Source: Patescibacteria group bacterium (GTDB taxonomy: Bacteria; Patescibacteriota; Minisyncoccia; Minisyncoccales; Staskawiczbacteraceae). Taken from it: a stretch of 64,000 bases of DNA. The translations under genes were made by a program, and so were the position numbers. The DNA lies in contig JBBTQL010000004.1 of NCBI GenBank assembly GCA_038065715.1, positions 35,693-99,692 on the forward strand. The letters are read 5' to 3'. Each line of letters begins with the position of its first letter. Within the stretch, counting starts at the first letter, position 1. This document shows positions 18,440 through 64,000 of the stretch, in pieces. Below the pieces are notes generated by a model. The model worked only from the letters and a program-made list of their open reading frames with translations, was not told the origin of the DNA and ran no database searches.

Positions 18440-18904
18440 CTACTTGTTGGTTTTAGCCGGCTCTTTTGGCGCTGGGAAAAGCTCCACAAACTTTTCCTTT
18501 GCCATTACTGGCACTTCTCTGATGCCCAGAGGCTGGGAAACCTTGGCGTAGAAAACTTTGCCCGAGCTGTCTTCAACAAGCAATAAGGTTTTCTTGTCTT
18601 TTGTCTGGCCCTCCCACATCACGTGGTAGATGTCCTCTTCTTTCGGGGTGGCATCAGAGGCAGTTGTTGGCGACTTTGCAGGAGGTGCTAATCCCTTTTG
18701 CACCAACAAAAACCCCGCAAAAGCGAACATGAAACAGAAAACAACAAACACTCCCAACAGCCATGGCCGTATTTCCCATTTGATGCCGTAGCTAAACGAC
18801 ATCAAAACGAAAAACCCAGCCACGATTATTACCGTCAGGCCAAAACAAATCTGAAGCACGTCCATTTTCAGACTCCCTATAGTAGGAACTTTTTGACGCA
18901 ACAT
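18440..18904 (-). CDS. Hypothetical membrane protein (GC elevated relative to neighbours)
   Basis: Two TM helices, then a soluble C-terminal domain. Local GC is clearly above flanking DNA. Confidence 0.5.
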   Translation of the reverse strand: MLRQKVPTIGSLKMDVLQICFGLTVIIVAGFFVLMSFSYGIKWEIRPWLLGVFVVFCFMFAFAGFLLVQKGLAPPAKSPTTASDATPKEEDIYHVMWEGQTKDKKTLLLVEDSSGKVFYAKVSQPLGIREVPVMAKEKFVELFPAPKEPAKTNK

Positions 18905-22770: not shown

Positions 22771-24039
22771 GTGTTAGATTGGGTAAATATGAGGATAAAA
22801 GAAGCAGTTAAAAAAATATTAGGCAGAAATTTGTTGGGTTTTTATCATTATGGCATGGCTTTTTTGGGAGCTGTGATTTTTGGTTTTCCATCTAAAAATT
22901 TAACTGTTATAGGGGTTACAGGCACCAGCGGTAAATCAACTACTTCTGATTTTATCACAAGAATTTTAGAAGAACCCTTCGACGGGGCCCAGGGCAGGTC
23001 TGGCAATAAGGTGGCTTCAATTTCAACAATAAGATTTAAAATTGCAGAAAAAGAATGGGAAAATAAATATAAAATGACAATGCCCGGCCGTTTTGTTATT
23101 CAAAAGTTTTTAAGGCAGGCAAAAAAAGCAGGATGCAAATTTGTGGTTTTAGAAGTTACTTCGCAAGGCATTGAACAATATCGCCATAAATTTATAAATT
23201 TTGATACAGCTGTTTTTACTAATTTGTCGCCAGAGCATATTGAAAGCCATGGCAGTTTTGAAAATTACAGAAACGCAAAACTAAAACTATTTCGAGCAAC
23301 AAAAAACATCCATATTATAAATACTGATGACGCAAATTCAAAATATTTTTGGAATATTCCGGCAAAACAAAAAATTGGATTTTCAGCCAAAGATGCGCAA
23401 AACGCTAATTTAAAATTAAATTTAATTGGAGACTTTAATATTTTAAACGCCTTAGCGGCAATTTCTGCGGCAAAGGCATATGGCATTGATTTTAGCATTT
23501 GTAAAAGGGCGCTGGAAAAGGCCAAAGGAATTTCTGGCAGAATGGAAGTGATTCAAAAAGAGCCATTCAAAGTTATTGTTGACTATGCTCATACTCCAGA
23601 ACAACTCGAAAGTGTCTATAAGGCACTTTCTCAAAACCCAAAACCTCAAACTCCAAACCCCAAACTTATTTGTGTGCTTGGAAGTTGCGGCGGGGGAAGG
23701 GATAAATGGAAAAGGACTGTTTTAGGAGAAATTGCAAATAAATATTGCGACAAAATATTTATAACCAATGAAGATCCATATGATGAAAACCCCAACCAGA
23801 TTTTATCTGAAATAAAATCTGGAATTATCAATTCTCAATTTCCAATTTCCAATTTATATGAAATTTTAGACCGTAAAGAGGCAATTAAAACTGCAATAAA
23901 ATTAGCAAAATCAGATGATATTGTTATAATCACTGGCAAGGGTTCAGAATCCTGGATGTGCATAGCAAACGGTAAAAAAATCCCCTGGGACGACAGGCAA
24001 ATCGCTAAAGATGCGTTGGGGCTCCAAACCTTGACATAG
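22771..24039 (+). CDS. Mur ligase family protein (MurE/MurF-like central and C-terminal domains)
   Basis: P-loop VIGVTGTSGKSTT. DYAHTPEQLESVY. N-terminal TM helix. Three in-frame repeat inserts (22975-23005; 23634-23665; 23829-23856). Confidence 0.7.
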   Translation: MLDWVNMRIKEAVKKILGRNLLGFYHYGMAFLGAVIFGFPSKNLTVIGVTGTSGKSTTSDFITRILEEPFDGAQGRSGNKVASISTIRFKIAEKEWENKYKMTMPGRFVIQKFLRQAKKAGCKFVVLEVTSQGIEQYRHKFINFDTAVFTNLSPEHIESHGSFENYRNAKLKLFRATKNIHIINTDDANSKYFWNIPAKQKIGFSAKDAQNANLKLNLIGDFNILNALAAISAAKAYGIDFSICKRALEKAKGISGRMEVIQKEPFKVIVDYAHTPEQLESVYKALSQNPKPQTPNPKLICVLGSCGGGRDKWKRTVLGEIANKYCDKIFITNEDPYDENPNQILSEIKSGIINSQFPISNLYEILDRKEAIKTAIKLAKSDDIVIITGKGSESWMCIANGKKIPWDDRQIAKDALGLQTLT

Positions 24040-24059
24040 ATGCTTTAATATGATATGAT
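24031..24059 (+). promoter_or_regulatory. Promoter TTGACA-N17-TATGAT of the DGR-A target gene, conserved with DGR-B
   Basis: ttgaca 24031-24036, 17-nt spacer, tatgat 24054-24059. The same hexamers and spacing occur at 61998-62025. Confidence 0.45.
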
Positions 24060-24218
24060 TAATAATATAGCTCTTTTTTATTGTTACTTGCGAAATTGGC
24101 AGTTATAGCCAAAAGCTACTGAATTATATCGGTATCTTCTGGCTATGACTGCTATGTCGGTACGTCAAGCAGAAACCAGCCTGTCATAATTGGCGGGCAA
24201 AACAGAAAGGAGATTGTC

Positions 24219-24878
24219 ATGGCTGTGCAAGTCATTGGCGATCTATATGTGGAGTTGGATGGGAAGTTGGCGGAGATTAAGCGGCAAATGAGGCAGCAGG
24301 GAGGCTATCCGTTTGACCCGGAGAAATTAAACAAGTTTCTCCAACTAGCTGTCGAGGGCAGGTTCAACGACAACCGGTGCTGGTGCGAGAAGGAAGGAGT
24401 GATCTACTTTGAGGTCACCTCTGACGGCACGACTGGACCCCAATGGATTGAGCGTCTGGAGAAGAAGGGTATCCAGCTCTCCAAGTGGGCCAAGGACGTC
24501 CTGCTGTCTCCGGACTTCAAGCCGACCAACGGCGTGACCACCGAGATCGCTGTCCTCAAGGGCGCGCTTTTTATGGACAATGATCGCATCACGTCTAAGA
24601 TCCGCGCTGAGGCCGACAAGCGCAAGCTCGTCAAGCCCGAAGCCGAACTCGGTTGCCTTATCCGCGACACGTTCACGGACGAGGAAATCGAAGCCATGGG
24701 TCTTGTGTGGATCGTGGCGTTCCACGAGCCCATCAAGGACTCTGACGGCGATCCGACGTTGCTCGGTGCGCGTCGCCTTGGCGATGGCCGTTGGCTGCGC
24801 GCGTGCTGCGGCCTGCCCGACCGCAGGTGGCTTCGCGACCGTGGCTTTGCCTTCGCCGTCTCGCAAGTATCTTCGTAA
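24219..24878 (+). CDS. DGR variable (target) protein A, with the variable region at its C-terminus
   Basis: SD aaaggagattgtc then ATG. 219 aa, ~57% GC. The C-terminal 42 codons are the VR matched by TR-A. Confidence 0.75.
   Translation: MAVQVIGDLYVELDGKLAEIKRQMRQQGGYPFDPEKLNKFLQLAVEGRFNDNRCWCEKEGVIYFEVTSDGTTGPQWIERLEKKGIQLSKWAKDVLLSPDFKPTNGVTTEIAVLKGALFMDNDRITSKIRAEADKRKLVKPEAELGCLIRDTFTDEEIEAMGLVWIVAFHEPIKDSDGDPTLLGARRLGDGRWLRACCGLPDRRWLRDRGFAFAVSQVSS
24741..24866 (+). repeat. DGR-A variable repeat (VR)
   Basis: 126 nt aligned to TR-A (25208-25333). Mismatches fall essentially only where the TR has A (e.g. TR aatcgcaatgac vs VR cgtcgccttggc). The 3' end ggctttgccttcgccgtctcgcaa is identical (IMH-like). 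Confidence 0.8.
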
Positions 24879-25207
24879 GTCCTTTGGGCTTGAGCCTTTG
24901 CTCTAGCCCTTGGATCCTCTGCCCTTTGCATTTCCTCACGGACTTGCACTGGGCAGATTTTTTTTGCTAAAATATAAATGGTAATAGGTGAATCTTGCGG
25001 GAGATCAAGGTTTCCCGCGGCCGAATCCAGTATTCGTATGCTGAGAGCGTTTGCGATTAAGGTTGCAAACGGAGGGCATACGAATTACTTTCAAAAAAGA
25101 AGATACTTGGCGTGGGAAACTAGGGCATTACGATGCCGAATTCGATACAGCCCTGTGATCGTAAAACTACTTCAAGGGGCAGTGGCATAGATGGTTTCTT
25201 GCGTATT

Positions 25208-25333
25208 TCTGACGGCGATCCGAACTTGCTCAGTGCGAATCGCAATGACGATGGCCATTGGCTGAACGCGTACTACGACAAGCCCGACAACAGGTGGAAT
25301 CGCGACAATGGCTTTGCCTTCGCCGTCTCGCAA
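25208..25333 (+). repeat. DGR-A template repeat (TR)
   Basis: Non-coding copy of the VR, rich in AAC/AAT codons (…AACGCGTACTACGACAAGCCCGACAACAGGTGGAATCGCGACAAT…). Confidence 0.8.
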
Positions 25334-25339
25334 CTCTCT

Positions 25340-25699
25340 TCATTTCTCTCCTTGCTTAGGAGAGTTTTGTTTAATAATTTGTCCCGACCAACCACCGAGC
25401 ATTTTGCCAATTTCATCTAGTTTCAATGATAGAGCAATATATTTTTTGTTATCCAATGATTTTGTTTCCCAAAGAATCATTAAAAATATTTTTAACGTAT
25501 CGACCTTTCTAATTGCTAAACGTACATAGGACAATTTTTCTGATTGCCCAAGAAAACTTGCAGTCACTATTGCCTCTATTGCTTCAACAAAAAGTTTATC
25601 AATTTTTTCACCAAGAGAATATTTATGTATTTTTGGTATAATTAAATAGTGTTGGTACCAAAAAAGATAAGCTTCTTTCAACTTTTGCAAAACAGGCAA
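25340..25699 (-). CDS. avd: DGR accessory variability determinant Avd-A (TTG start)
   Basis: 120 aa. ...KYSLGEKIDKLFVEAIEAIVTASF...KLDEIGKMLGGWSGQIIKQ matches Avd four-helix-bundle proteins (compare Bordetella bAvd ...EVGRILGSWIARVNRK). Starts at TTG 25697-25699 just downstream of the C10 tract, as in copy B. The ORF track's longer start (25834) runs through the homopolymer. Confidence 0.7.
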   Translation of the reverse strand: MPVLQKLKEAYLFWYQHYLIIPKIHKYSLGEKIDKLFVEAIEAIVTASFLGQSEKLSYVRLAIRKVDTLKIFLMILWETKSLDNKKYIALSLKLDEIGKMLGGWSGQIIKQNSPKQGEK

Positions 25700-25705
25700 C
25701 AGTCT

Positions 25706-25715
25706 GGGGGGGGGG
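25706..25715. repeat. Homopolymeric G10 (C10 on the avd strand) in the avd/RT divergent intergenic region
   Basis: agtctGGGGGGGGGGattaaaag. The equivalent position in DGR-B has G7. Confidence 0.9.
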
Positions 25716-25739
25716 ATTAAAAGCTGAGTTATTTTGATT

Positions 25740-26726
25740 ATGAAAATTACTTTGCAACATAAATACGAAGACATCATAAGCGTTGAGAATATTTTGGAAG
25801 CATGGCAAGAGTTTCTTCTCGGCAAAAGAAACAAGCCCGATGTTCAAGAATTTTCTCTCTGTCTGATGAATAATGTTTTTAATTTGCACAACGACTTATC
25901 CAATCATACCTACAAACACGGAGGCTATCAACAATTTAAAATTAACGACCCAAAGCCAAGAACAATCCACAAAGCCAGCGTAAAAGACAGATTATTGCAC
26001 CACGCAGTATATCGTATATTATACCCGTTTTTTGATAAAAAGTTTATTGCAGACTCTTTCTCTTGCAGAAACAACAAAGGCACTCATAAAGCATTAAACA
26101 AATTCAGGGAGTTCAGCTATATTGTTTCCAAAAACAACACAAACACCTGCTGGATTTTAAAATGCGACATAAAAAAGTTTTTTGCCAGCGTTGATCAGCA
26201 GATACTAATTAAAATTTTAGAAAAATATATTTCAGAAAAAGATATTATCAACTTTCTAAAAGAAATAATTTTTGGTTTTAAACCCAATGGTTTGCCTCTC
26301 GGTAATTTGACTTCCCAGTTGTTCGCAAATGTTTATCTGAATGAATTTGACCAGTTTGTAAAACACAAATTGAAAGTAAAATACTATATTAGGTATGCCG
26401 ATGACTTCGTAATTTTATCAGAGAACAAAAATTATTTAAAAAACATAATTCCAGAGCTAAAATATTATTTAAAAAACAATTTAAAACTGGAAATTCATCC
26501 AAATAAAATTTTTATTAAAACATTGAATTCTGGCGTTGATTTTTTAGGCTGGATTAATTTTACAGATCATAGAGTTTTAAGGACAAAAACTAAAAACAGA
26601 ATATTAAAGAGAATAAAAAATAATTCAAGTATTGAAACATTAAATTCTTATTCGGGTTTGTTAAAACATGGAAATATGAACAAAATGATTAAGAAATTAT
26701 TTAAGGAAACGGAGATTGCTTTTTAA
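25740..26726 (+). CDS. DGR reverse transcriptase A
   Basis: RT motifs including GLPLGNLTSQLFANVYLNEFD (DGR-type motif 4) and YIRYADDFV (YxDD). 329 aa. Nearly identical to the partial RT at 63686. Confidence 0.85.
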   Translation: MKITLQHKYEDIISVENILEAWQEFLLGKRNKPDVQEFSLCLMNNVFNLHNDLSNHTYKHGGYQQFKINDPKPRTIHKASVKDRLLHHAVYRILYPFFDKKFIADSFSCRNNKGTHKALNKFREFSYIVSKNNTNTCWILKCDIKKFFASVDQQILIKILEKYISEKDIINFLKEIIFGFKPNGLPLGNLTSQLFANVYLNEFDQFVKHKLKVKYYIRYADDFVILSENKNYLKNIIPELKYYLKNNLKLEIHPNKIFIKTLNSGVDFLGWINFTDHRVLRTKTKNRILKRIKNNSSIETLNSYSGLLKHGNMNKMIKKLFKETEIAF

Positions 26727-38037: not shown

Positions 38038-38054
38038 TTGTATTTATTATTTTA

Positions 38055-38403
38055 GTGGAAGCGCCGGGGTCGAACCCGGGTCCAGAAATTTTTTAAAAAT
38101 AAATCTACAAATTTATCTTGCTTTGTTGTTTGGATATTAAATAAGAAGCAAGAAAAATGTTTAATATCCTAATTCTCGTAAATCTCGACAGTTCCCCGAG
38201 AAATAAAACTGCCTATCCTGAAAATATAACACCCTCGGTCCATTTATCAGGAGTCAATGGCGAGGATGCAGCATTAAGCTAAAGCTAGTGCTGGTTGCCT
38301 ATTAAATAAATTAGCAATTATGTTTTTTCTATAAGTTTAACCAGGTTATAGAAAACTGGATTTGCATATTTTTAATGAAACATCTGTCAAAACTTACGCT
38401 CCC
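38055..38403 (-). ncRNA. ssrA: tmRNA (SsrA)
   Basis: 3' end GGACCCGGGTTCGACCCCGGCGCTTCCA (T-arm + acceptor) at 38056-38083 on the minus strand. 5' GGGAGCG at 38397-38403 pairs with the 3' CGCUUCC to form a 7-bp acceptor stem. Candidate tag reading frame gct aat tta ttt aat agg caa cca gca cta gct tta gct taa gives (A)NLFNRQPALALA* (plus 38274-38315). Lies immediately downstream of smpB. Confidence 0.65.
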
Positions 38404-53335: not shown

Positions 53336-54607
53336 ATGTATAAAAAAACAACATTAAAAAACGGATTAAGGGTGATAACAATTCCAATGGAAAACGCCAA
53401 TAGTGTTACTGTTTTAATCTTGGTTGGCACAGGTTCAAAATATGAAACAAAAGACATAAACGGCATTTCTCATTTTTTAGAACATATGTTTTTTAAAGGC
53501 ACTGAAAAAAGGCCAACCACTTTAAAAATTGCCGAAACCTTAGATATGGTTGGCGGCGAATATAATGCTTTCACATCAAAAGAAATTACTGGATTTTGGG
53601 CTAAAGTAGATAAAAAACACACAGATGTTGCTTTAGACTGGATATCTGATATGTTTTTAAATTCTAAATTTGACGAAAAAGAAATAGAAAGAGAAAAAGG
53701 AGTAATAATAGAAGAGGTAAATATGTATTTAGACACCCCAATGGCCTATGTTGGAGAATTATGGGAAGATTTGCTTTACAAAGACCAGCCGGCCGGCTGG
53801 CGGGTTATAGGCGAAAAAGAAAACATACTGAACTTTAACAGAAAAAAAATTATAAATTATTATAAAAATCATTATTCGCCAAAAAATACAATAATTTGCG
53901 TGTCGGGAGGCATTGAGCAAGATAAAATTGCATCAAAAATACAGAGTTATTTTTCCCCCTTCGGGGGATCCGCCGTAGGCGGAAAAGTTAAAGTAAAAGA
54001 ATACCAAAAAGAGCCTGAAATATTGTTTCACCATAAAAAAACAGACCAGACCCATTTTTGTTTAGGGGTAAGGGCATACGATATGTTTCATCAGCAAAAA
54101 TATGCTTTGGTTTTACTGGCTATTATTTTGGGGGGAAACATGAGCTCGCGTCTTTTTATTAAAGTAAGGGAAAGAAGCGGTTTGGCTTATTCTATTCACA
54201 CATCTGTTGACGCTTCTACTGACACCGGATATTTGGTCACGCAAGCTGGAATTGACCATAAAAATTTAGAAAAATCAGTAAAGCTTATTTTACAGGAATA
54301 TAAAAACATTAAAGATACAAAAATTACAGAAAGAGAATTGCAAAAGGCAAAAGATTATTTAAAGGGAACTATGTCTTTGTCTTTAGATTCGTCAGACAGC
54401 CAAGCTTCTTTTTATGCCGTGCAAGAATTGCTTGAAAAGGAAGTTTTATCTCCTGAAGAAAAGTTTAAAAAAATTGACACAGTTTCTGTAAATGATATAA
54501 AAAAGGTAGCAGAGGATATATTTTTACCAGAAAAGTTGAATTTGGCAGTTATCGGCCCGTTTGAAGAAAATAAAAAAGAAGAGTTTAAAAAAATACTAAA
54601 AATATGA
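53336..54607 (+). CDS. M16-family zinc peptidase (insulinase-like)
   Basis: HFLEHMFFKGT (HxxEH). In-frame GC insert at 53945-53972 (PFGGSAVGGK). Confidence 0.8.
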   Translation: MYKKTTLKNGLRVITIPMENANSVTVLILVGTGSKYETKDINGISHFLEHMFFKGTEKRPTTLKIAETLDMVGGEYNAFTSKEITGFWAKVDKKHTDVALDWISDMFLNSKFDEKEIEREKGVIIEEVNMYLDTPMAYVGELWEDLLYKDQPAGWRVIGEKENILNFNRKKIINYYKNHYSPKNTIICVSGGIEQDKIASKIQSYFSPFGGSAVGGKVKVKEYQKEPEILFHHKKTDQTHFCLGVRAYDMFHQQKYALVLLAIILGGNMSSRLFIKVRERSGLAYSIHTSVDASTDTGYLVTQAGIDHKNLEKSVKLILQEYKNIKDTKITERELQKAKDYLKGTMSLSLDSSDSQASFYAVQELLEKEVLSPEEKFKKIDTVSVNDIKKVAEDIFLPEKLNLAVIGPFEENKKEEFKKILKI

Positions 54608-55635
54608 GCCAAAGCCAAACATTGGACATTTCTTGGGAAGCTATAATAAAAATATTTATAGCAATTTTTGTTTTATATATGATTTATTTGGCGCGGAATA
54701 TCGTCCTTTGGTTTTTCTTTGGGCTGGCAATATCTGTTTTATTGGATCCTGCAATTAATTTTTTAAGAAAGCTATGGATACCTAAAATGCTGGCAATAGT
54801 TGTGATTTATTTTTCTATTTTTGGATTATTAGGAATTTTAATTTATTTAATGGCGCCTCTTTTTATAAGCGAGTTAAAGCAATTTTCCAGTTATTTGCCT
54901 GATTATTTTAATCAAATAAATCCGGTTTTGCAAAAATTCGGGATAGATGCCGCCCAAAGCTTTAACGAATTTATCGGTTCGCTGGTAGGCGGGTTAGAGC
55001 AAAGTTCAAGGGGAGTGATGGACGCATTATTCACATTCTTTGGAGGGTTATCTTCAACTGTTATTATTTTAACAATAGCCTTTTTTCTATCGCTGGAAGA
55101 CAGGGGCCCAGAAAAGTTTTTGGCGCTGGTTTCGCCTAAAAAATACCAGGATAAAATTGTTTTATTTTTTGAAAAAGCCCAGACTAAGGTTGCAGGATGG
55201 TTTGGCGCAAGGATAATTGCCTGTCTTTTTGTGGGAGCAGCATCTTTTATAGTATTTTATATTTTTAACATAAAATACGCCTTTTTATTGGCATTAATTG
55301 CCGGTATTTTTAATTTTGTTCCATATATAGGACCGTTAATAACCGCTATTTTGCTGATTGTATTTGTTTTTGTTTCTGCCGGATCTTGGCTTATTACAAT
55401 GTATATTTTGCTGGCTATTTGGGTTGTTCAGATAATAGAAAATAATATTTTAACTCCTTTTTTAATGAAAAAAATGATAGACATTCCGCCAGTTTTAGTT
55501 TTAATATCTTTGCTGTTTGGAGCCAAAGTTTTTGGTTTTTTGGGGACTATATTTGTAGTGCCAGTTTTTGGAATTATATATGAATTTACAAAAGAGATGC
55601 TGGAAAAGAGAAAAGAAGAAACGTTTTCTGATTAA
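54604..55635 (+). CDS. AI-2E family transporter (PerM/YhhT-like)
   Basis: 343 aa with 7-8 TM helices and typical AI-2E topology and length. Confidence 0.55.
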   Translation: MSQSQTLDISWEAIIKIFIAIFVLYMIYLARNIVLWFFFGLAISVLLDPAINFLRKLWIPKMLAIVVIYFSIFGLLGILIYLMAPLFISELKQFSSYLPDYFNQINPVLQKFGIDAAQSFNEFIGSLVGGLEQSSRGVMDALFTFFGGLSSTVIILTIAFFLSLEDRGPEKFLALVSPKKYQDKIVLFFEKAQTKVAGWFGARIIACLFVGAASFIVFYIFNIKYAFLLALIAGIFNFVPYIGPLITAILLIVFVFVSAGSWLITMYILLAIWVVQIIENNILTPFLMKKMIDIPPVLVLISLLFGAKVFGFLGTIFVVPVFGIIYEFTKEMLEKRKEETFSD

Positions 55636-57698: not shown

Positions 57699-57953
57699 AT
57701 GCTGGTTTTGTCCCGCAAGAAGAACGAGAGCATTGTCATCAACGACGATATCACGATTGTCGTGATAGAAATCCGCGGCGACAAGGTTCGCCTCGGCATT
57801 GATGCGCCAAAAGAGGTGCCTGTCCACCGGCGCGAAGTGTTTGACGCGATACGTCGCGATGATGCTTCAGCAGCTAGTACGGGGATTAAAACCTCCGAGA
57901 CCCCCGATAATCTGGAGGATCCCGCCGAGGAAAGCCCTCAAGACCCAGGTTAA
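57699..57953 (+). CDS. csrA: Carbon storage regulator CsrA (GC-rich, with an acidic C-terminal extension)
   Basis: MLVLSRKKNESIVINDDITIVVIEIRGDKVRLGIDAPKEVPVHRREVFDAI aligns along its full length with CsrA/RsmA. ~55% GC against a ~33% background. Confidence 0.8.
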   Translation: MLVLSRKKNESIVINDDITIVVIEIRGDKVRLGIDAPKEVPVHRREVFDAIRRDDASAASTGIKTSETPDNLEDPAEESPQDPG

Positions 57954-59467: not shown

Positions 59468-62014
59468 ATGAATATGGCAAAATATAATCCTCAAAAAATT
59501 GAGAAGAAATGGCAAGAGGCTTGGTATAAATCAAGCATTTTTAAAGCTAAAAACGGGTCTAAAAATAAGAAATTTTACCTTTTAGTGGAGTTTCCTTATC
59601 CTTCGGGAGACGGGCTTCATGTCGGCCATTGCCGAAGCTATACTGCCTTAGATATTATTGCCAGAAAAAAAAGAATGCAGGGATTTAATGTTTTATTCCC
59701 AATGGGCTGGGACGCTTTTGGATTGCCAACTGAAAATTATGCCATAAAAAAGGGAGTACACCCGTCTGTTGTGACAAAAAAGAATACAGATAACTTTAGG
59801 CGGCAGATGAAAAGTTTGGGGCTTTCTTTTGACTGGAGCCGAGAAATAAATACCACAGACCCAAAATATTATAAATGGACGCAGTGGATTTTTTTGCAGT
59901 TATTTAAAAATAACTTGGCTTATAAAGATAAAATTGCAATCAACTGGTGCCCTAAAGATAAAATTGGATTGGCAAATGAAGAAGTGATAAATGGCAAATG
60001 CGAAAGATGCGGCGCAAAAGTTGAAAAAAGAGATAAAGAGCAATGGATGATAAAAATTACAAAATATGCCGACAGATTAATTGAAGATTTAAATTTAGTT
60101 GATTATTTAGAAAAAATAAAAATACAGCAGAAAGATTGGATAGGCGAGTCACATGGAGCGTTGATAAAATTTTCGTTAGAAGGAAGCGAAGAATTCATAG
60201 AAGTTTTTACAACCAGAATAGACACAATATTTTCTGGCACGTTTTTAATTTTATCTCCAGGACACAATTTTATAGATAAATATAAAAATAAAATTGAAAA
60301 CATTGATGAAGTTTTAAAATATAGAGAAACCGCAAAAAATACTTCTGATATAGATAGAACTAATCAAGATAAAGATATTACAGGAGTGGAATTAAAAGGA
60401 ATTACAGTAAAAAATCCTGCCACAAATGAAGAAATGCCAGTTTGGACAGCTGATTTTGTTTTAGAGCAATACGGAACAGGAGTCGTTTTTGCTGATGCCC
60501 ATGATAAAAGAGATTTTAAAATGGCAAAAAAATATGGGATACCTTTGCGAACTTCAATAAAACCAGAAAATGAACTATCGGCGCAAAAAGCAAAAAATTT
60601 GGAAGAATGTTTTGAGGGCGAAGGCGCTCTTTATAATTCTATGCATTTTGACGGCTTAACTTCTTCTGAAGCCCGACCTAAAATAATTTCTTGGTTAAGG
60701 GAAAAAGGATATGCGGAAAACAAAATAAGCTATAAGCTTCGAGATTGGGTTTTTTCGCGCCAGCATTATTGGGGCGAGCCAATACCAATGATTTTTTGCG
60801 TAAAATGCGGTTGGCAGGCTGTTTTAGAAAAAAATCTGCCCGTTGAATTGCCTAAGGTAAAAAAATATCAGCCAACAGATACAGGCGAATCTCCTCTTTC
60901 TGCTATTGAAAAATGGGTAAATGTAAAATGTCCAAAATGCAAAGGACCGGCAAAAAGAGAAACAGACACAATGCCTAATTGGGCAGGTTCAAACTGGTAT
61001 TACTTGGCATATACTATGCCAAAAATTTCAAATTTCAAATTTCAAATTTCAAATTCTGCGAAAGAATTTTCGCAGTGGATGCCAGTTGACTGGTATAATG
61101 GCGGAATGGAGCACACAACTTTGCATTTATTGTATTCAAGATTTATTTTTAAATTTTTATGGGATATTGGAGCTGTTCCAAAAATAATTGGGGCAGAACC
61201 ATATAAAAAAAGAACTTCGCATGGAATGATTTTAGGCGAAGGGGGAATTAAAATGTCAAAGTCAAAGGGAAATGTAATAAATCCAGATTCAGTTGTGAAA
61301 CAATATGGAGCCGACACCTTAAGAGTTTACGAAATGTTTATCGGGCCTTTTGAGCAAATGATTCCTTGGGATATAAAGGGGGTTGTTGGTTCGCGCAGGT
61401 TTTTAGAAAAAATTTACAACTTAGTTTTGAAGAAGGCAATTCCGGCAAAAATCCCGACGGTCTCGCCGTCGAGGACCCGCGACGAAGTCGGGGCAGAAGA
61501 AAATTTTAAAAAACTTTTGCATAAAACAATAAAAAAGGTTGGTGACGATATTGAGGCAATGAAATTTAACACAGCAGTGAGCTCTTTAATGGAATTTGTA
61601 AATGCATGGAGCATTGCTGAAAATAGTTTAGATAAACCAGCCTCCGATAAAGGCTACGGCTTGGCGAAGAAAGATTTGCAAGAATTTTTAAAGATTTTGT
61701 CGCCTTTTGCCCCGCATTTGTCAGAAGAGCTTTGGCAAAGAGCTGGATTTAAAGGTTTGTGCTGCGCTCAAAAATGGCCTAAGTATGACGAAAAATTAAT
61801 TGAAGAAAAAAACATATTGCTTATTGTGCAAATTAACGGTAAAGTTAGAGATAAAATAGAAGTTAACGCAGGCATTACTCAAAAACAAGCTGAAGAAATA
61901 GTTTTAAAATTAGAAAAAATTAAAAACCGTATAACTAATATTAAAGAAGTGGAAAAAGTTGTTTTTGTGCCAGGTAAGTTAATAAATTTTGTGACTATTG
62001 ACAAGGATAAGTAA
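59468..62014 (+). CDS. leuS: Leucyl-tRNA synthetase
   Basis: HVGHCRSYTALDIIARKKRMQGFNVLFPMGWDAFGLP (HIGH region). KMSKSKGN. 848 aa. Heptamer array + hairpin at 61023-61077 and palindrome at 61453-61494 are in-frame. Confidence 0.9.
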   Translation: MNMAKYNPQKIEKKWQEAWYKSSIFKAKNGSKNKKFYLLVEFPYPSGDGLHVGHCRSYTALDIIARKKRMQGFNVLFPMGWDAFGLPTENYAIKKGVHPSVVTKKNTDNFRRQMKSLGLSFDWSREINTTDPKYYKWTQWIFLQLFKNNLAYKDKIAINWCPKDKIGLANEEVINGKCERCGAKVEKRDKEQWMIKITKYADRLIEDLNLVDYLEKIKIQQKDWIGESHGALIKFSLEGSEEFIEVFTTRIDTIFSGTFLILSPGHNFIDKYKNKIENIDEVLKYRETAKNTSDIDRTNQDKDITGVELKGITVKNPATNEEMPVWTADFVLEQYGTGVVFADAHDKRDFKMAKKYGIPLRTSIKPENELSAQKAKNLEECFEGEGALYNSMHFDGLTSSEARPKIISWLREKGYAENKISYKLRDWVFSRQHYWGEPIPMIFCVKCGWQAVLEKNLPVELPKVKKYQPTDTGESPLSAIEKWVNVKCPKCKGPAKRETDTMPNWAGSNWYYLAYTMPKISNFKFQISNSAKEFSQWMPVDWYNGGMEHTTLHLLYSRFIFKFLWDIGAVPKIIGAEPYKKRTSHGMILGEGGIKMSKSKGNVINPDSVVKQYGADTLRVYEMFIGPFEQMIPWDIKGVVGSRRFLEKIYNLVLKKAIPAKIPTVSPSRTRDEVGAEENFKKLLHKTIKKVGDDIEAMKFNTAVSSLMEFVNAWSIAENSLDKPASDKGYGLAKKDLQEFLKILSPFAPHLSEELWQRAGFKGLCCAQKWPKYDEKLIEEKNILLIVQINGKVRDKIEVNAGITQKQAEEIVLKLEKIKNRITNIKEVEKVVFVPGKLINFVTIDKDK

Positions 62015-62025
62015 ATATGCTATGA
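61998..62025 (+). promoter_or_regulatory. Promoter TTGACA-N16-TATGAT of the DGR-B target gene
   Basis: ttgaca 61998-62003 (inside the leuS 3' end) and tatgat 62020-62025. Matches the DGR-A promoter. Confidence 0.45.
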
Positions 62026-62201
62026 TTAATAATACAGCTCTTTTTAAGTGAAAATACTTGCAAAAACAGCGGTTATAGCCAAAAGCGACCGAAGGTCGTC
62101 CTGAGCAGAGCCGAAGGACAACAAATCGGTATTTTCTGGCTATGACTGCTATGGTAGTAGTCAAGCGAAATGGTGAAACCCTAAAGAAAGGAAAAAGCAC
62201 C

Positions 62202-62822
62202 ATGTCGTACGACAAGCAGACAGCCGAGTTCATCGCCACTGTGGTGCAGAACATCCCCAAAATGTCAGGCGATGTTATGCAGGGTTGGATTGGGAATCCA
62301 AAAGCGCTACAGAAGCTCCTCTTGGGTCTATGCCCTTCTGTCAATGAGCCCAAGGAAGTCTCGTTGCTCCGCAAGCTCGCCAGCGTTCAGGTGGAGGGCG
62401 TTGCAAGATTCGTCGTTGACGACGATACCCTGCAGGCGGCCAACATCGGCTGGACTGGCGACAACTTCAAAAAGTTTTTCGCCAAGAAGGTTGAGGAGGA
62501 TGTTCCCGCCTGCGCTATCGCTGTTCACCGGCTGGAACGCGCGTCTTCGGATGCGCCCATTCTCACCGAACTCGGTGACCGCGCCGAAATCAGCCTCGCG
62601 CACCTGTTCGAGCTGATCAAAAAGCAGTCCAAGGGCGAAACTGGCCAGTTGTTGGTTAATGGTTATGCGAATGTCGCATATGTCCGTGGAACCGATGGCA
62701 ACCTCTGGGCTGTGCTTGCGGCCTGGCGCTCTTACTGCGGTTGCTGGGGTGTCGAGGCTGACTCGGTTGAGGATCCGGACGGGTGGCGCGGTAGCCGCCG
62801 GATTCTCTCCCGCGATTCTTGA
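62202..62822 (+). CDS. DGR variable (target) protein B, with the variable region at the extreme C-terminus
   Basis: SD aaaggaaaaagcacc then ATG at 62202. ~57% GC. Last 36 codons = VR-B. The ORF track's upstream ATG (62142) lies in the conserved leader. Confidence 0.7.
   Translation: MSYDKQTAEFIATVVQNIPKMSGDVMQGWIGNPKALQKLLLGLCPSVNEPKEVSLLRKLASVQVEGVARFVVDDDTLQAANIGWTGDNFKKFFAKKVEEDVPACAIAVHRLERASSDAPILTELGDRAEISLAHLFELIKKQSKGETGQLLVNGYANVAYVRGTDGNLWAVLAAWRSYCGCWGVEADSVEDPDGWRGSRRILSRDS
62704..62813 (+). repeat. DGR-B variable repeat (VR)
   Basis: 110 nt aligned to TR-B (63165-63274). Substitutions essentially only at TR adenines (TR tac ggt tac tgg aat ... aac vs VR tgc ggt tgc tgg ggt ... 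gac). Shared 3' attctctcccgc. Confidence 0.8.
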
Positions 62823-63164: not shown

Positions 63165-63274
63165 TCTGGGCTGTGAATGCGAACTGGAACTCTAACTACG
63201 GTTACTGGAATGTCGAGGCTAACTCGGTTGAGAATCCGAACAGGTGGAACGATAGCAACCAGATTCTCTCCCGC
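63165..63274 (+). repeat. DGR-B template repeat (TR)
   Basis: AAC/AAT-rich (…AACTGGAACTCTAACTACGGTTACTGGAATGTCGAGGCTAACTCG…). Encodes LWAVNANWNSNYGYWNVEANSVENPNRWNDSNQ in the VR frame. Confidence 0.8.
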
Positions 63275-63642
63275 TACTGTTTTCTTTCTTCCGCTTTTAT
63301 CGCGGAAGTTTTGCTTATTATTCCTTTTTTCCAGCCACCGATTATCTTACCAATGCCTTCTATCTCAGCGCCAAGCGAGATATATTGTTTATTAGAAACG
63401 AGTTTTGTTTCCCATAAAAGCTGAAAGAAAAAACGCAACGAATCAATTTTGTCCGATGTCGCTTCAAGCAAAACAAGTTTTTTATTTATTGGCGTATACG
63501 TAGCTTTTCTTAATAACTCAAGAAGATCTAAAAATAAAATATCTACTTTAGTCCCGATTCCGAACCGCGCGATTCGTTCAATATTGCGATGCACTTCCAT
63601 CCACTGTTTATATATCAATTTGGATTTTTGCAAAACTGGCAA
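63274..63642 (-). CDS. avd: DGR accessory variability determinant Avd-B (TTG start)
   Basis: 122 aa. ...LGAEIEGIGKIIGGWKKGIISK C-terminus. Co-linear with Avd-A. Stop codon overlaps the last 2 nt of TR-B. TTG start 6 nt from the C7 tract. Confidence 0.7.
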   Translation of the reverse strand: MPVLQKSKLIYKQWMEVHRNIERIARFGIGTKVDILFLDLLELLRKATYTPINKKLVLLEATSDKIDSLRFFFQLLWETKLVSNKQYISLGAEIEGIGKIIGGWKKGIISKTSAIKAEERKQ

Positions 63643-63685: not shown

Positions 63686-64000
63686 ATGAAAATTGTTTTG
63701 AAACATAAATATGAATATTTAATTAGCGTTAATAATTTATTGGAAGCGTGGACAGAATTTATCAAGGGGAAGCGCAACAAAAGCGATGTTCAGATTTTTT
63801 CATTTCATTTAATGGATAATATTTTACAACTTCATTGTGATTTAAAAAATGGCACATATAAGCATGGAGGCTATCAACAATTTAAAATCAACGACCCAAA
63901 ACCAAGGATAATTCACAAAGCCAGCGTAAAAGACAGATTATTGCACCACGCAGTATATCGTATATTATACCCGTTTTTTGATAAAAAGTTCATTGCAGAC
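63686..64000 (+). CDS. DGR reverse transcriptase B (5' part; continues beyond the window)
   Basis: MKIVLKHKYEYLISVNNLLEAWTEFIKGKRNK...GGYQQFKINDPKPRIIHKASVKDRLLHHAVYRILYPFFDKKFIAD. The last ~130 nt are ~95% identical at the DNA level to RT-A 25920-26050. Confidence 0.85.
   Translation, partial: MKIVLKHKYEYLISVNNLLEAWTEFIKGKRNKSDVQIFSFHLMDNILQLHCDLKNGTYKHGGYQQFKINDPKPRIIHKASVKDRLLHHAVYRILYPFFDKKFIAD

Follow-up and report, generated by a model that had tools for sequence, protein, structure and literature searches.

A stretch of 64,000 nucleotides (nt) from a Patescibacteria group bacterium of the Staskawiczbacteraceae (GenBank assembly GCA_038065715.1, contig JBBTQL010000004.1, positions 35,693 to 99,692; here called the window) encodes two diversity-generating retroelements (DGRs) whose small target genes are far richer in G+C than the genes around them. 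The GC excess is genuine and runs through whole families within one class of Patescibacteria DGR targets, and the literature searched does not remark on it. Outside the diversified variable repeat (VR) it lies almost entirely at codon position 3, that is, at synonymous sites. The anatomy of the cassettes and the modular exchange of target and template repeat (TR) are well supported, and the cause of the synonymous excess has been narrowed down.

Two DGRs with GC-Rich Target Genes

Both cassettes are bona fide DGRs, because the mismatches between VR and TR fall at TR adenines and the Pfam families bAvd and RVT_1 are recognized beside them. The first comprises a target coding sequence (CDS) of 219 amino acids (aa) on the forward strand (24219–24878) with its VR (VR1, 24741–24874), followed in the same orientation by TR1 (25208–25341) and a reverse transcriptase gene (RT1, 25734–26726; RVT_1, E = 1.2e-24); avd1 lies on the opposite strand (25340–25834; bAvd, E = 3.4e-11, over residues 50–150 of a 164-aa open reading frame [ORF]). 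The second comprises a 206-aa target CDS (62202–62822), VR2 (62704–62820), TR2 (63165–63281), avd2, again on the reverse strand (63274–63642; bAvd, E = 2.9e-9, a match of 37.8 bits that is slightly below the 40-bit cutoff), and the 5′ part of a second RT gene (63686–64000, forward strand), which is recognized from the likeness, judged by eye, of its translation to the RT1 N terminus and is cut by the end of the window. TR adenines account for 22 of the 25 mismatches between VR1 and TR1 and for every visible mismatch between VR2 and TR2, and homologous RTs adjoin TRs in 31 related loci.

The window has an overall GC fraction of 0.345, and the genes of the mechanical gene list have a median GC of 0.34 and a median third-position GC (GC3) of 0.28. 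Target 1 has a GC of 0.582 (0.605, 0.405, and 0.736 at codon positions 1, 2, and 3), and target 2 one of 0.573, or 0.559 over the mechanical ORF, which begins inside the leader (62142–62822), with a GC3 of 0.656. When GC is computed in 600-nt windows (mean 0.345, standard deviation 0.049), the two highest values of the 64 kb are the two targets (0.60 and 0.58), both about five standard deviations above the mean.

A preliminary description of this DNA, made from its letters alone, had proposed that both targets are GC-rich along their whole length and not in the VR alone, and this is borne out: without its VR (24219–24730), target 1 still has a GC of 0.559 and a GC3 of 0.741. The RT, avd, and upstream region lie near host GC, also as proposed (RT1 0.292, with a GC3 of 0.33; avd1 0.325; avd2 0.358; 24040–24218, 0.369), and the parts of the cassettes other than the targets are host-like or intermediate in composition. 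The TRs do exceed the window GC, but at 0.560 (TR1) and 0.496 (TR2) they are less GC-rich than the roughly 57% that had been claimed for them. The VRs reach 0.687 (VR1) and 0.658 (VR2), with an adenine content of merely 0.075–0.077; the AT skew of the target 1 body is positive. Uniform GC across the cassettes is not seen, and the compositional contrast stands when computed precisely.

Generality of the GC Excess in Relatives

Relatives were taken as the best 80 loci per scan, 80 genome loci for the target-1 family and 80 metagenome loci for the target-2 family (designated by L and a number), and comparison with the flanks was limited to those with enough flanking sequence (77 and 46, respectively). 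Target GC exceeds flank GC in 77/77 and 46/46 of these loci, with a mean excess of +0.13 in both families, and the excess holds across Patescibacteria hosts of 30% to 57% GC; high-GC targets are thus general among related genomes in both families, a point that the preliminary description had marked for checking. Target GC depends weakly on host GC (slope 0.29–0.30). RT GC follows the host (slope 0.83, r 0.78; slope 0.64, r 0.85) at 0.04 below it, and Avd does likewise. In a meta-profile over the loci, the excess sets in at the start codon, stays at +0.11 to +0.15 along the body, climbs to +0.22 in the VR, and falls away at the stop codon; a small bump follows at the TR.

In 74 of 85 loci no flanking host gene reaches the GC3 of the target body, and these loci include most of those from the GC-richest hosts. 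An unguided scan of GC3 over the 1,755 ORFs of the fetched loci returned 52 strong outliers, which are target 1, target 2, a few apparent VR-bearing proteins, csrA, the membrane protein of the window, and a handful of unrelated or spurious ORFs. On a logit scale the regression of target GC3 on host GC3 has a slope of 0.36, a value that matches neither the slope of 1 expected under a constant selection coefficient nor the slope of 0 expected under independence of the host.

The islands might in principle be an artefact, with chimeric assembly or mis-binning having placed GC-rich foreign fragments on an AT-rich contig. Beyond the sharpness of the compositional boundaries nothing favors this; more than 120 independent contigs, obtained in different studies and with different assemblers, share this architecture, five contigs of up to 272 kb carry the exact target-1 protein, and the boundaries coincide with start and stop codons, promoters, and terminators. 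The probability of an artefact is therefore negligible.

A whole-CDS excess is not a general property of DGRs, because six phage DGRs with verified A-mismatched VR/TR pairs show a VR-limited rise only: their target bodies have the phage's own GC3 (for example, 0.17 versus 0.23, 0.34 versus 0.38, and 0.72 versus 0.71), and the VR alone is GC-enriched. Within the candidate phyla radiation (CPR), a different DGR target family, located beside its RT in L081 and lacking the leader described below, is AT-rich (GC3 0.38); a stand-alone target-1 homolog on the same contig has a GC3 of 0.72.

Location of the Excess at Synonymous Positions

With the VR excluded, the GC3 of the target body is 0.70 and 0.68, compared with 0.44 and 0.40 for the hosts, a rise of +0.26 to +0.28; GC1 and GC2 are near those of the host. 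At third positions of the body, A is reduced to 0.52 and T to 0.55 of the host value, C is raised 1.9-fold, and G is raised 1.3- to 1.5-fold. Four-fold degenerate sites have an A content of 0.13 and a T content of 0.25, a C/(C+G) ratio of 0.63, and a GC (GC4) of 0.66.

The preliminary description had offered strong selection on adenine content over the whole gene as one explanation, which might operate if, for example, long cDNAs sometimes mutagenized the gene body. The VRs are indeed extremely poor in adenine (A3 0.04–0.05), and A is more depleted than T at the four-fold sites of the body. Over all third positions of the body, however, A and T are depleted alike, and the pattern is therefore not one of adenine avoidance; in addition, positions 1 and 2 keep a host-like A content of about 0.30, the AT skew of target 1 is positive, recent changes create A or T and do not remove them (see below), and the bodies of phage DGR targets are undepleted. 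Adenine avoidance outside the VR is thus largely refuted, and we consider it very improbable.

Exchange of the Target Module

Comparison of locus pairs shows that a module of target and template swaps between cassettes with deeply diverged RTs. In many such pairs the targets have an aa identity of 0.94–0.99 and a proportion of synonymous differences (pS) of 0.08–0.18; the paired RTs are about 0.60 identical, with a pS of 0.82–0.93. Sliding identity reveals a block, 92% to 100% identical, that extends from about 80 nt before the start codon through the CDS, spacer, and TR; identity falls to 55%–60% in the RT, and the upstream flanks are unrelated. Both breakpoints are sharp. The upstream one precedes the start codon by about 80 nt; the downstream one coincides with the TR end in one pair and falls within or after avd in a second, so that avd belongs to the identical block in only one of the two. 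The exchange appears to use the conserved leader and the TR/avd sequences as sites of homologous recombination.

Whole cassettes move as well. The RT of L006 (L006:11347–12078) has a GC of 0.46 in a host of 0.36 and shares 93% identity with its counterpart in L037, which resides in a host of 0.48 GC; whole DGR cassettes have therefore also been transferred between Patescibacteria lineages.

The proposal that target and TR were acquired as modules from a much higher-GC donor and plugged into native machinery thus divides into two. Its modular part is supported by the contrast between the 92%–100% block and the roughly 60% identical RTs and by stand-alone inserted units. Its donor is not: every contig in which the families were seen is of Patescibacteria type and has a GC of 57% or less, a scan of viral contigs for target 1 found nothing, and none of the 160 related loci (the best 80 per scan) has a matching native composition, their hosts reaching at most 0.57 in GC and 0.65 in GC3. 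A single import from a high-GC donor, which was considered and set aside, fits poorly with the lack of a matching host, with the same offsets in two unrelated families, and with synonymous divergence: target 1 of the window is near-saturated against most of its homologs, yet all have a high GC3.

Two further cases bear on the movement of these units. In L083 (L083:8651–10660), two tandem units of leader and target lie between the PepM16 and AI-2E genes, which abut in L165 (L165:622–2933) and in the window (53336–55635). One unit encodes a 288-aa protein with a GC3 of 0.80 and the other a target-1 homolog; the locus has no RT and no TR match, and a remnant of the RNA motif that otherwise precedes the TR follows the second unit (L083:10763). 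L001 and L116 have six upstream flanking genes in common (about 64% aa identity), yet at the corresponding position L001 carries a target of the first type and L116 one of the second, which suggests that one target family took the place of the other at a DGR already resident there.

csrA and Target 2 in Conserved Surroundings

Two further genes of the window had been described as GC islands similar to the targets. They are real islands but weaker ones: csrA (57699–57953, forward strand; Pfam CsrA), which is no DGR gene, has a GC of 0.541 and a GC3 of 0.60, and a small gene for a predicted 154-aa membrane protein (18440–18904, reverse strand) has a GC of 0.471 and a GC3 of 0.555.

The block of methionyl-tRNA synthetase, csrA, and TatD genes is conserved in the window, in L165 (Staskawiczbacteria, 35% GC), and in L095, and the GC3 of csrA is 0.60–0.65 in four AT-rich genomes (the window, L165:5001–5237, L095:4042–4212, and L021:12500–12655). 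Third positions of csrA are saturated between orthologs, and its divergence is like that of its neighbors. Judged from this synteny and divergence, csrA has been inherited vertically and has kept its GC-rich codons. Homolog taxonomy was uninformative for csrA because the protein is too conserved, and csrA lies close to targets in 3 of about 160 loci, about what we estimate to be expected by chance.

Target 2 presents a comparable case. From 54.6 to 63.6 kb the window is collinear with L095, with housekeeping proteins 54% to 80% identical and same-codon fractions near the expectation from shuffling (synonymous sites near saturation). In both genomes target 2 follows the gene for leucyl-tRNA synthetase; the two targets are 58% identical, with a GC3 of 0.66 and 0.67, and the Avd proteins are 84% identical. 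Because syntenic csrA and target 2 keep their GC-rich codons, gene-specific maintenance is favored.

Explanations for the GC-Rich Codons

Our reading is that each DGR would consist of two units with separate histories. One would be the RT with Avd, whose composition follows the host; the other would be a self-contained target module of promoter, structured leader, small target CDS, terminator-like hairpin, structured RNA, and TR. Two effects would raise the GC of the module. VR and TR would keep adenines only where variation is wanted, an ordinary element of DGR design that is found in phage DGRs too. The rest of the target CDS is written, from start codon to stop codon, in G- or C-ending codons, mostly C-ending, a pattern common to at least two unrelated target families with the same leader and nearly independent of host GC. 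A gene-specific, GC-favoring force on synonymous sites, combined with turnover of the module, may account for this second effect, and we give this explanation about an even chance of being correct. The likeliest such force would be selection on synonymous sites at the level of translation or mRNA; replacement of decayed copies through module exchange may help to keep the codons GC-rich.

Several observations weigh against selection of this kind. In one host, L081, the genes for ribosomal proteins L20 and L35 and for initiation factor 3 have a GC3 of only 0.19–0.22, so the shift is not that host's ordinary codon set for high expression. Internal target segments exceed their synonymous shuffles in mRNA structure by a modest margin only (z of −1.7 and −2.7; host genes, −1.06). 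A low-GC3 clade of target 1 (L009, L045, L067, L075, and L077) keeps A-mismatched VR/TR pairs, and diversification therefore does not require a GC-rich body. In-situ replacement of a module would keep synteny, so vertical descent of target 2 is not proven. The rise of target GC with host GC (slope about 0.3), the transfer of whole cassettes exemplified by L006, and the codon usage of targets in AT-rich hosts, which correlates (r = 0.85) with the usage in Patescibacteria hosts at or above 50% GC, count on the same side. So does the spectrum of rare synonymous variants in a tight cluster of 34 targets, 58 GC-to-AT and 4 AT-to-GC, which is what decay after import predicts. When changes were counted by parsimony over the entire target-1 tree, GC-to-AT outnumbered AT-to-GC by about 2 to 1 on internal and terminal branches alike; these counts were judged unreliable because sites are saturated and base composition is skewed.

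The main rival is recurrent import followed by amelioration: modules would evolve mainly in GC-richer Patescibacteria or in an unsampled reservoir, recombine time and again into the resident DGRs of AT-rich hosts, and decay there towards host composition, with no selection on codons. The slope on host GC, the AT-ward spectrum, the codon usage, the movement of whole cassettes (L006 and L037), and the low-GC3 clade, whose DGRs are apparently active, are all in its favor, as are the mosaic relation of the module to the RT and the few native-looking targets in GC-rich hosts (L055, L079, L023, and L031). No sampled host matches, however: host GC3 is at most 0.65 in the sampled loci, many targets have a GC3 of 0.75–0.88, and the target exceeds its host nearly everywhere. 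A pool circulating among hosts with a mean GC3 of 0.40–0.44 could not hold a value of about 0.7 without a GC-favoring force. The confinement of the excess to the CDS and to codon position 3, the same offsets in two unrelated families, the absence of hits in viral contigs, and the persistence of such an island in the syntenic, vertically inherited csrA also speak against recurrent import, which we regard as possible and as less probable than a gene-specific force.

GC-biased gene conversion would raise GC if the module were a recombination hotspot with GC-biased repair of heteroduplexes. Frequent recombination of the module is documented, and AT-biased young variants together with a long-term high GC are a classic signature of the process. 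Against it, the excess is limited to third positions of the CDS; the co-transferred leader and spacer have a GC of 0.43 and 0.45, compared with the body GC4 of 0.66 (although both are constrained RNAs); a strand-symmetric bias does not predict the preference for C over G at four-fold sites; and csrA has the same pattern without evidence of exchange. This mechanism seems unlikely.

Cassette Anatomy and Two Structured RNAs

Comparison of the two cassettes confirms that the targets have a promoter and leader in common, as previously described. The sigma-70-like promoter of target 1 (24031–24054, forward strand) has a TTGACA box (24031–24036) and the sequence TATGAT twice (24049–24054 and 24054–24059), the second copy at a spacing of 17 nt from the −35 box; the conserved promoter of target 2 (61998–62026, forward strand) has TTGACA and TATGAT separated by 17 nt. 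The structured 5′ leader of target 1 (24060–24218) includes a long hairpin (about 24098–24156) and a Shine-Dalgarno sequence, AAAGGAG (24206–24212). The same structured element forms the leader of target 2 (62035–62201).

The leader motif precedes about 85 target-1 and target-2 genes (for example, L012:9726–9877 and L083:8651–8780), and RNAalifold predicts 21 base pairs, of which 12 are backed by compensatory changes. A long outer helix (GGTCATAGCC...GGCTATGACC), an AAAAG junction, and a variable inner hairpin characterize the motif; in many loci, the window cassettes not among them, two small hairpins precede the Shine-Dalgarno sequence. The inner hairpin of the target 2 leader has an insert of about 35 nt (CGAAGGTCGTCCTGAGCAGAGCCGAAGGAC-like, about 62090–62125). 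L078:8066–8141, L093:179–254, and L032:3809–3882 carry the same insert at that loop, and L107 has much longer ones; either an expansion segment or a small hairpin capable of moving may be involved.

The spacer that separates the target stop codon from the TR is probably functional and no mere filler. A hairpin and T-run come first, a −10-like box next, and then, immediately before the TR, an element of about 200 nt. For target 1 the hairpin and T-run (24919–24965, forward strand) are terminator-like in sequence and have counterparts in 14 aligned loci, where they would presumably end the target transcript; the element next to TR1 spans 24980–25207 on the forward strand. In the 14 aligned loci (including window 24919–25207 and L001:10508–10836), this pre-TR element has conserved blocks and compensatory changes in its stems, and it probably forms the 5′ domain of the TR RNA. 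The spacer as a whole is about 300–440 nt long, mostly 320–350 nt, and has a GC of 0.36–0.51, mostly 0.44–0.49, with little variation across hosts. Rfam has no match for the leader or the pre-TR RNA, a permissive threshold giving chance-level hits only.

The stop codon of avd overlaps the 3′ end of the TR in both cassettes, by 2 nt in cassette 1 (25340–25341) and by 8 nt in cassette 2 (63274–63281). The mechanical avd1 ORF overlaps the start of RT1 by about 100 nt (25709–25834), and because of this overlap the true start of avd1 is probably near 25708. No integrase or tRNA gene is found near the target islands. Elsewhere in the window, a tmRNA gene (38053–38403, reverse strand; Rfam, 112 bits; tag peptide predicted by ARAGORN, ANLFNRQPALALA) represents the sole Rfam family at the gathering threshold.

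Target Protein Families

The target-1 family has more than 1,600 homologous proteins, and all those with a source name are from Patescibacteria; target 1 itself is identical to a protein of a metagenome-assembled genome labeled Patescibacteria group bacterium. A Pfam search matched no family to either target. Homology between target 1 and target 2 was considered and ruled out by BLASTP and profile-profile comparison. An AlphaFold2 model of target 1 has a predicted local distance difference test score (pLDDT) of 90, and its Foldseek matches are weak and nearly all to C-type lectin domains.

An N-terminal segment (MKY.DITLGQVEAVWNKLGG...FLRGE) is common to members of the target-1 family, members of the target-2 family, and a third VR-bearing family (carriers include P0114, P0128, L025:4054–4638, L116:7869–8582, and L127:7899–8531). 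Because three families have the segment in common, it points to domain shuffling among target families.

Relation to Known Systems

The Patescibacteria (CPR) DGRs are reportedly those of Paul et al. in 2017. The cassettes analyzed here are members of the known CPR group. Like other CPR DGRs, they combine an RT, Avd, and TR/VR pairs with adenine-specific mismatches, and they have small modular targets with a C-terminal VR and a chromosomal location in ultra-small bacteria. The mutagenic retrohoming logic, and the GC-enriched and A-poor VR (in all six phage controls), are found in BPP-1 and other phage DGRs too. Unlike in the phage controls, whose target bodies keep the phage GC3, here the whole CDS is shifted; also unlike in phage DGRs, avd abuts the 3′ end of the TR on the opposite strand, a conserved RNA precedes the TR, and the target has a structured leader.

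Compositional islands that arise by horizontal transfer and then ameliorate are a concept of Lawrence and Ochman. The target genes resemble such islands in their atypical GC and codon usage, in their phylogenetic incongruence with neighboring genes, and in the AT-ward decay of recent variants. They differ in being one CDS wide, in lacking mobility genes, a tRNA anchor, or an identified donor, in exceeding the host in nearly every lineage, and in having a parallel in syntenic csrA. As an analogy only, the modules also recall integron gene cassettes, in which a resident platform takes up small, interchangeable units; unlike integron cassettes, the unit described here has its own promoter and leader, and no integrase or attC site is seen.

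The Patescibacteria (CPR) DGRs correspond to DGR clade 2 in the survey of Roux et al. (2021; PMC8144416), which does not discuss composition. In the literature searched, host GC is compared with the GC of whole DGRs only, with the conclusion that the parts of a DGR evolve together as one cassette (PMC5758913). Paul et al. (2017) aside, the literature searched makes no mention of a GC split within cassettes, of swapping of target and TR relative to the RT, or of the leader and pre-TR RNAs.

Implications

DGRs are usually treated as cassettes with coevolving parts. In the loci analyzed here, a diversified gene and its template RNA are exchanged as a unit independent of the enzyme. To judge from the loci compared, such exchange implies that recognition of the TR RNA by RT and Avd may be conserved over about 40% protein divergence, and ultra-small symbiotic bacteria could then re-assort their target repertoires with one another. 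Each of the two conserved RNAs may represent a new RNA family, and the GC3 contrast is a cheap marker for targets of this class, stand-alone ones far from an RT included.

The CDS-limited synonymous excess, mirrored by csrA, offers a natural case for the study of synonymous selection against AT mutation pressure in tiny genomes. More tentatively, Patescibacteria might keep a small set of genes, the leader-bearing DGR targets and csrA, in a GC-rich "codon dialect" maintained against the AT-biased mutation pressure of the host, with the target unit as an autonomous, exchangeable cassette that can be re-paired with a distantly related RT and Avd. If so, synonymous GC would be functional in these cassettes, for example in mRNA survival or in translation under shared post-transcriptional control.

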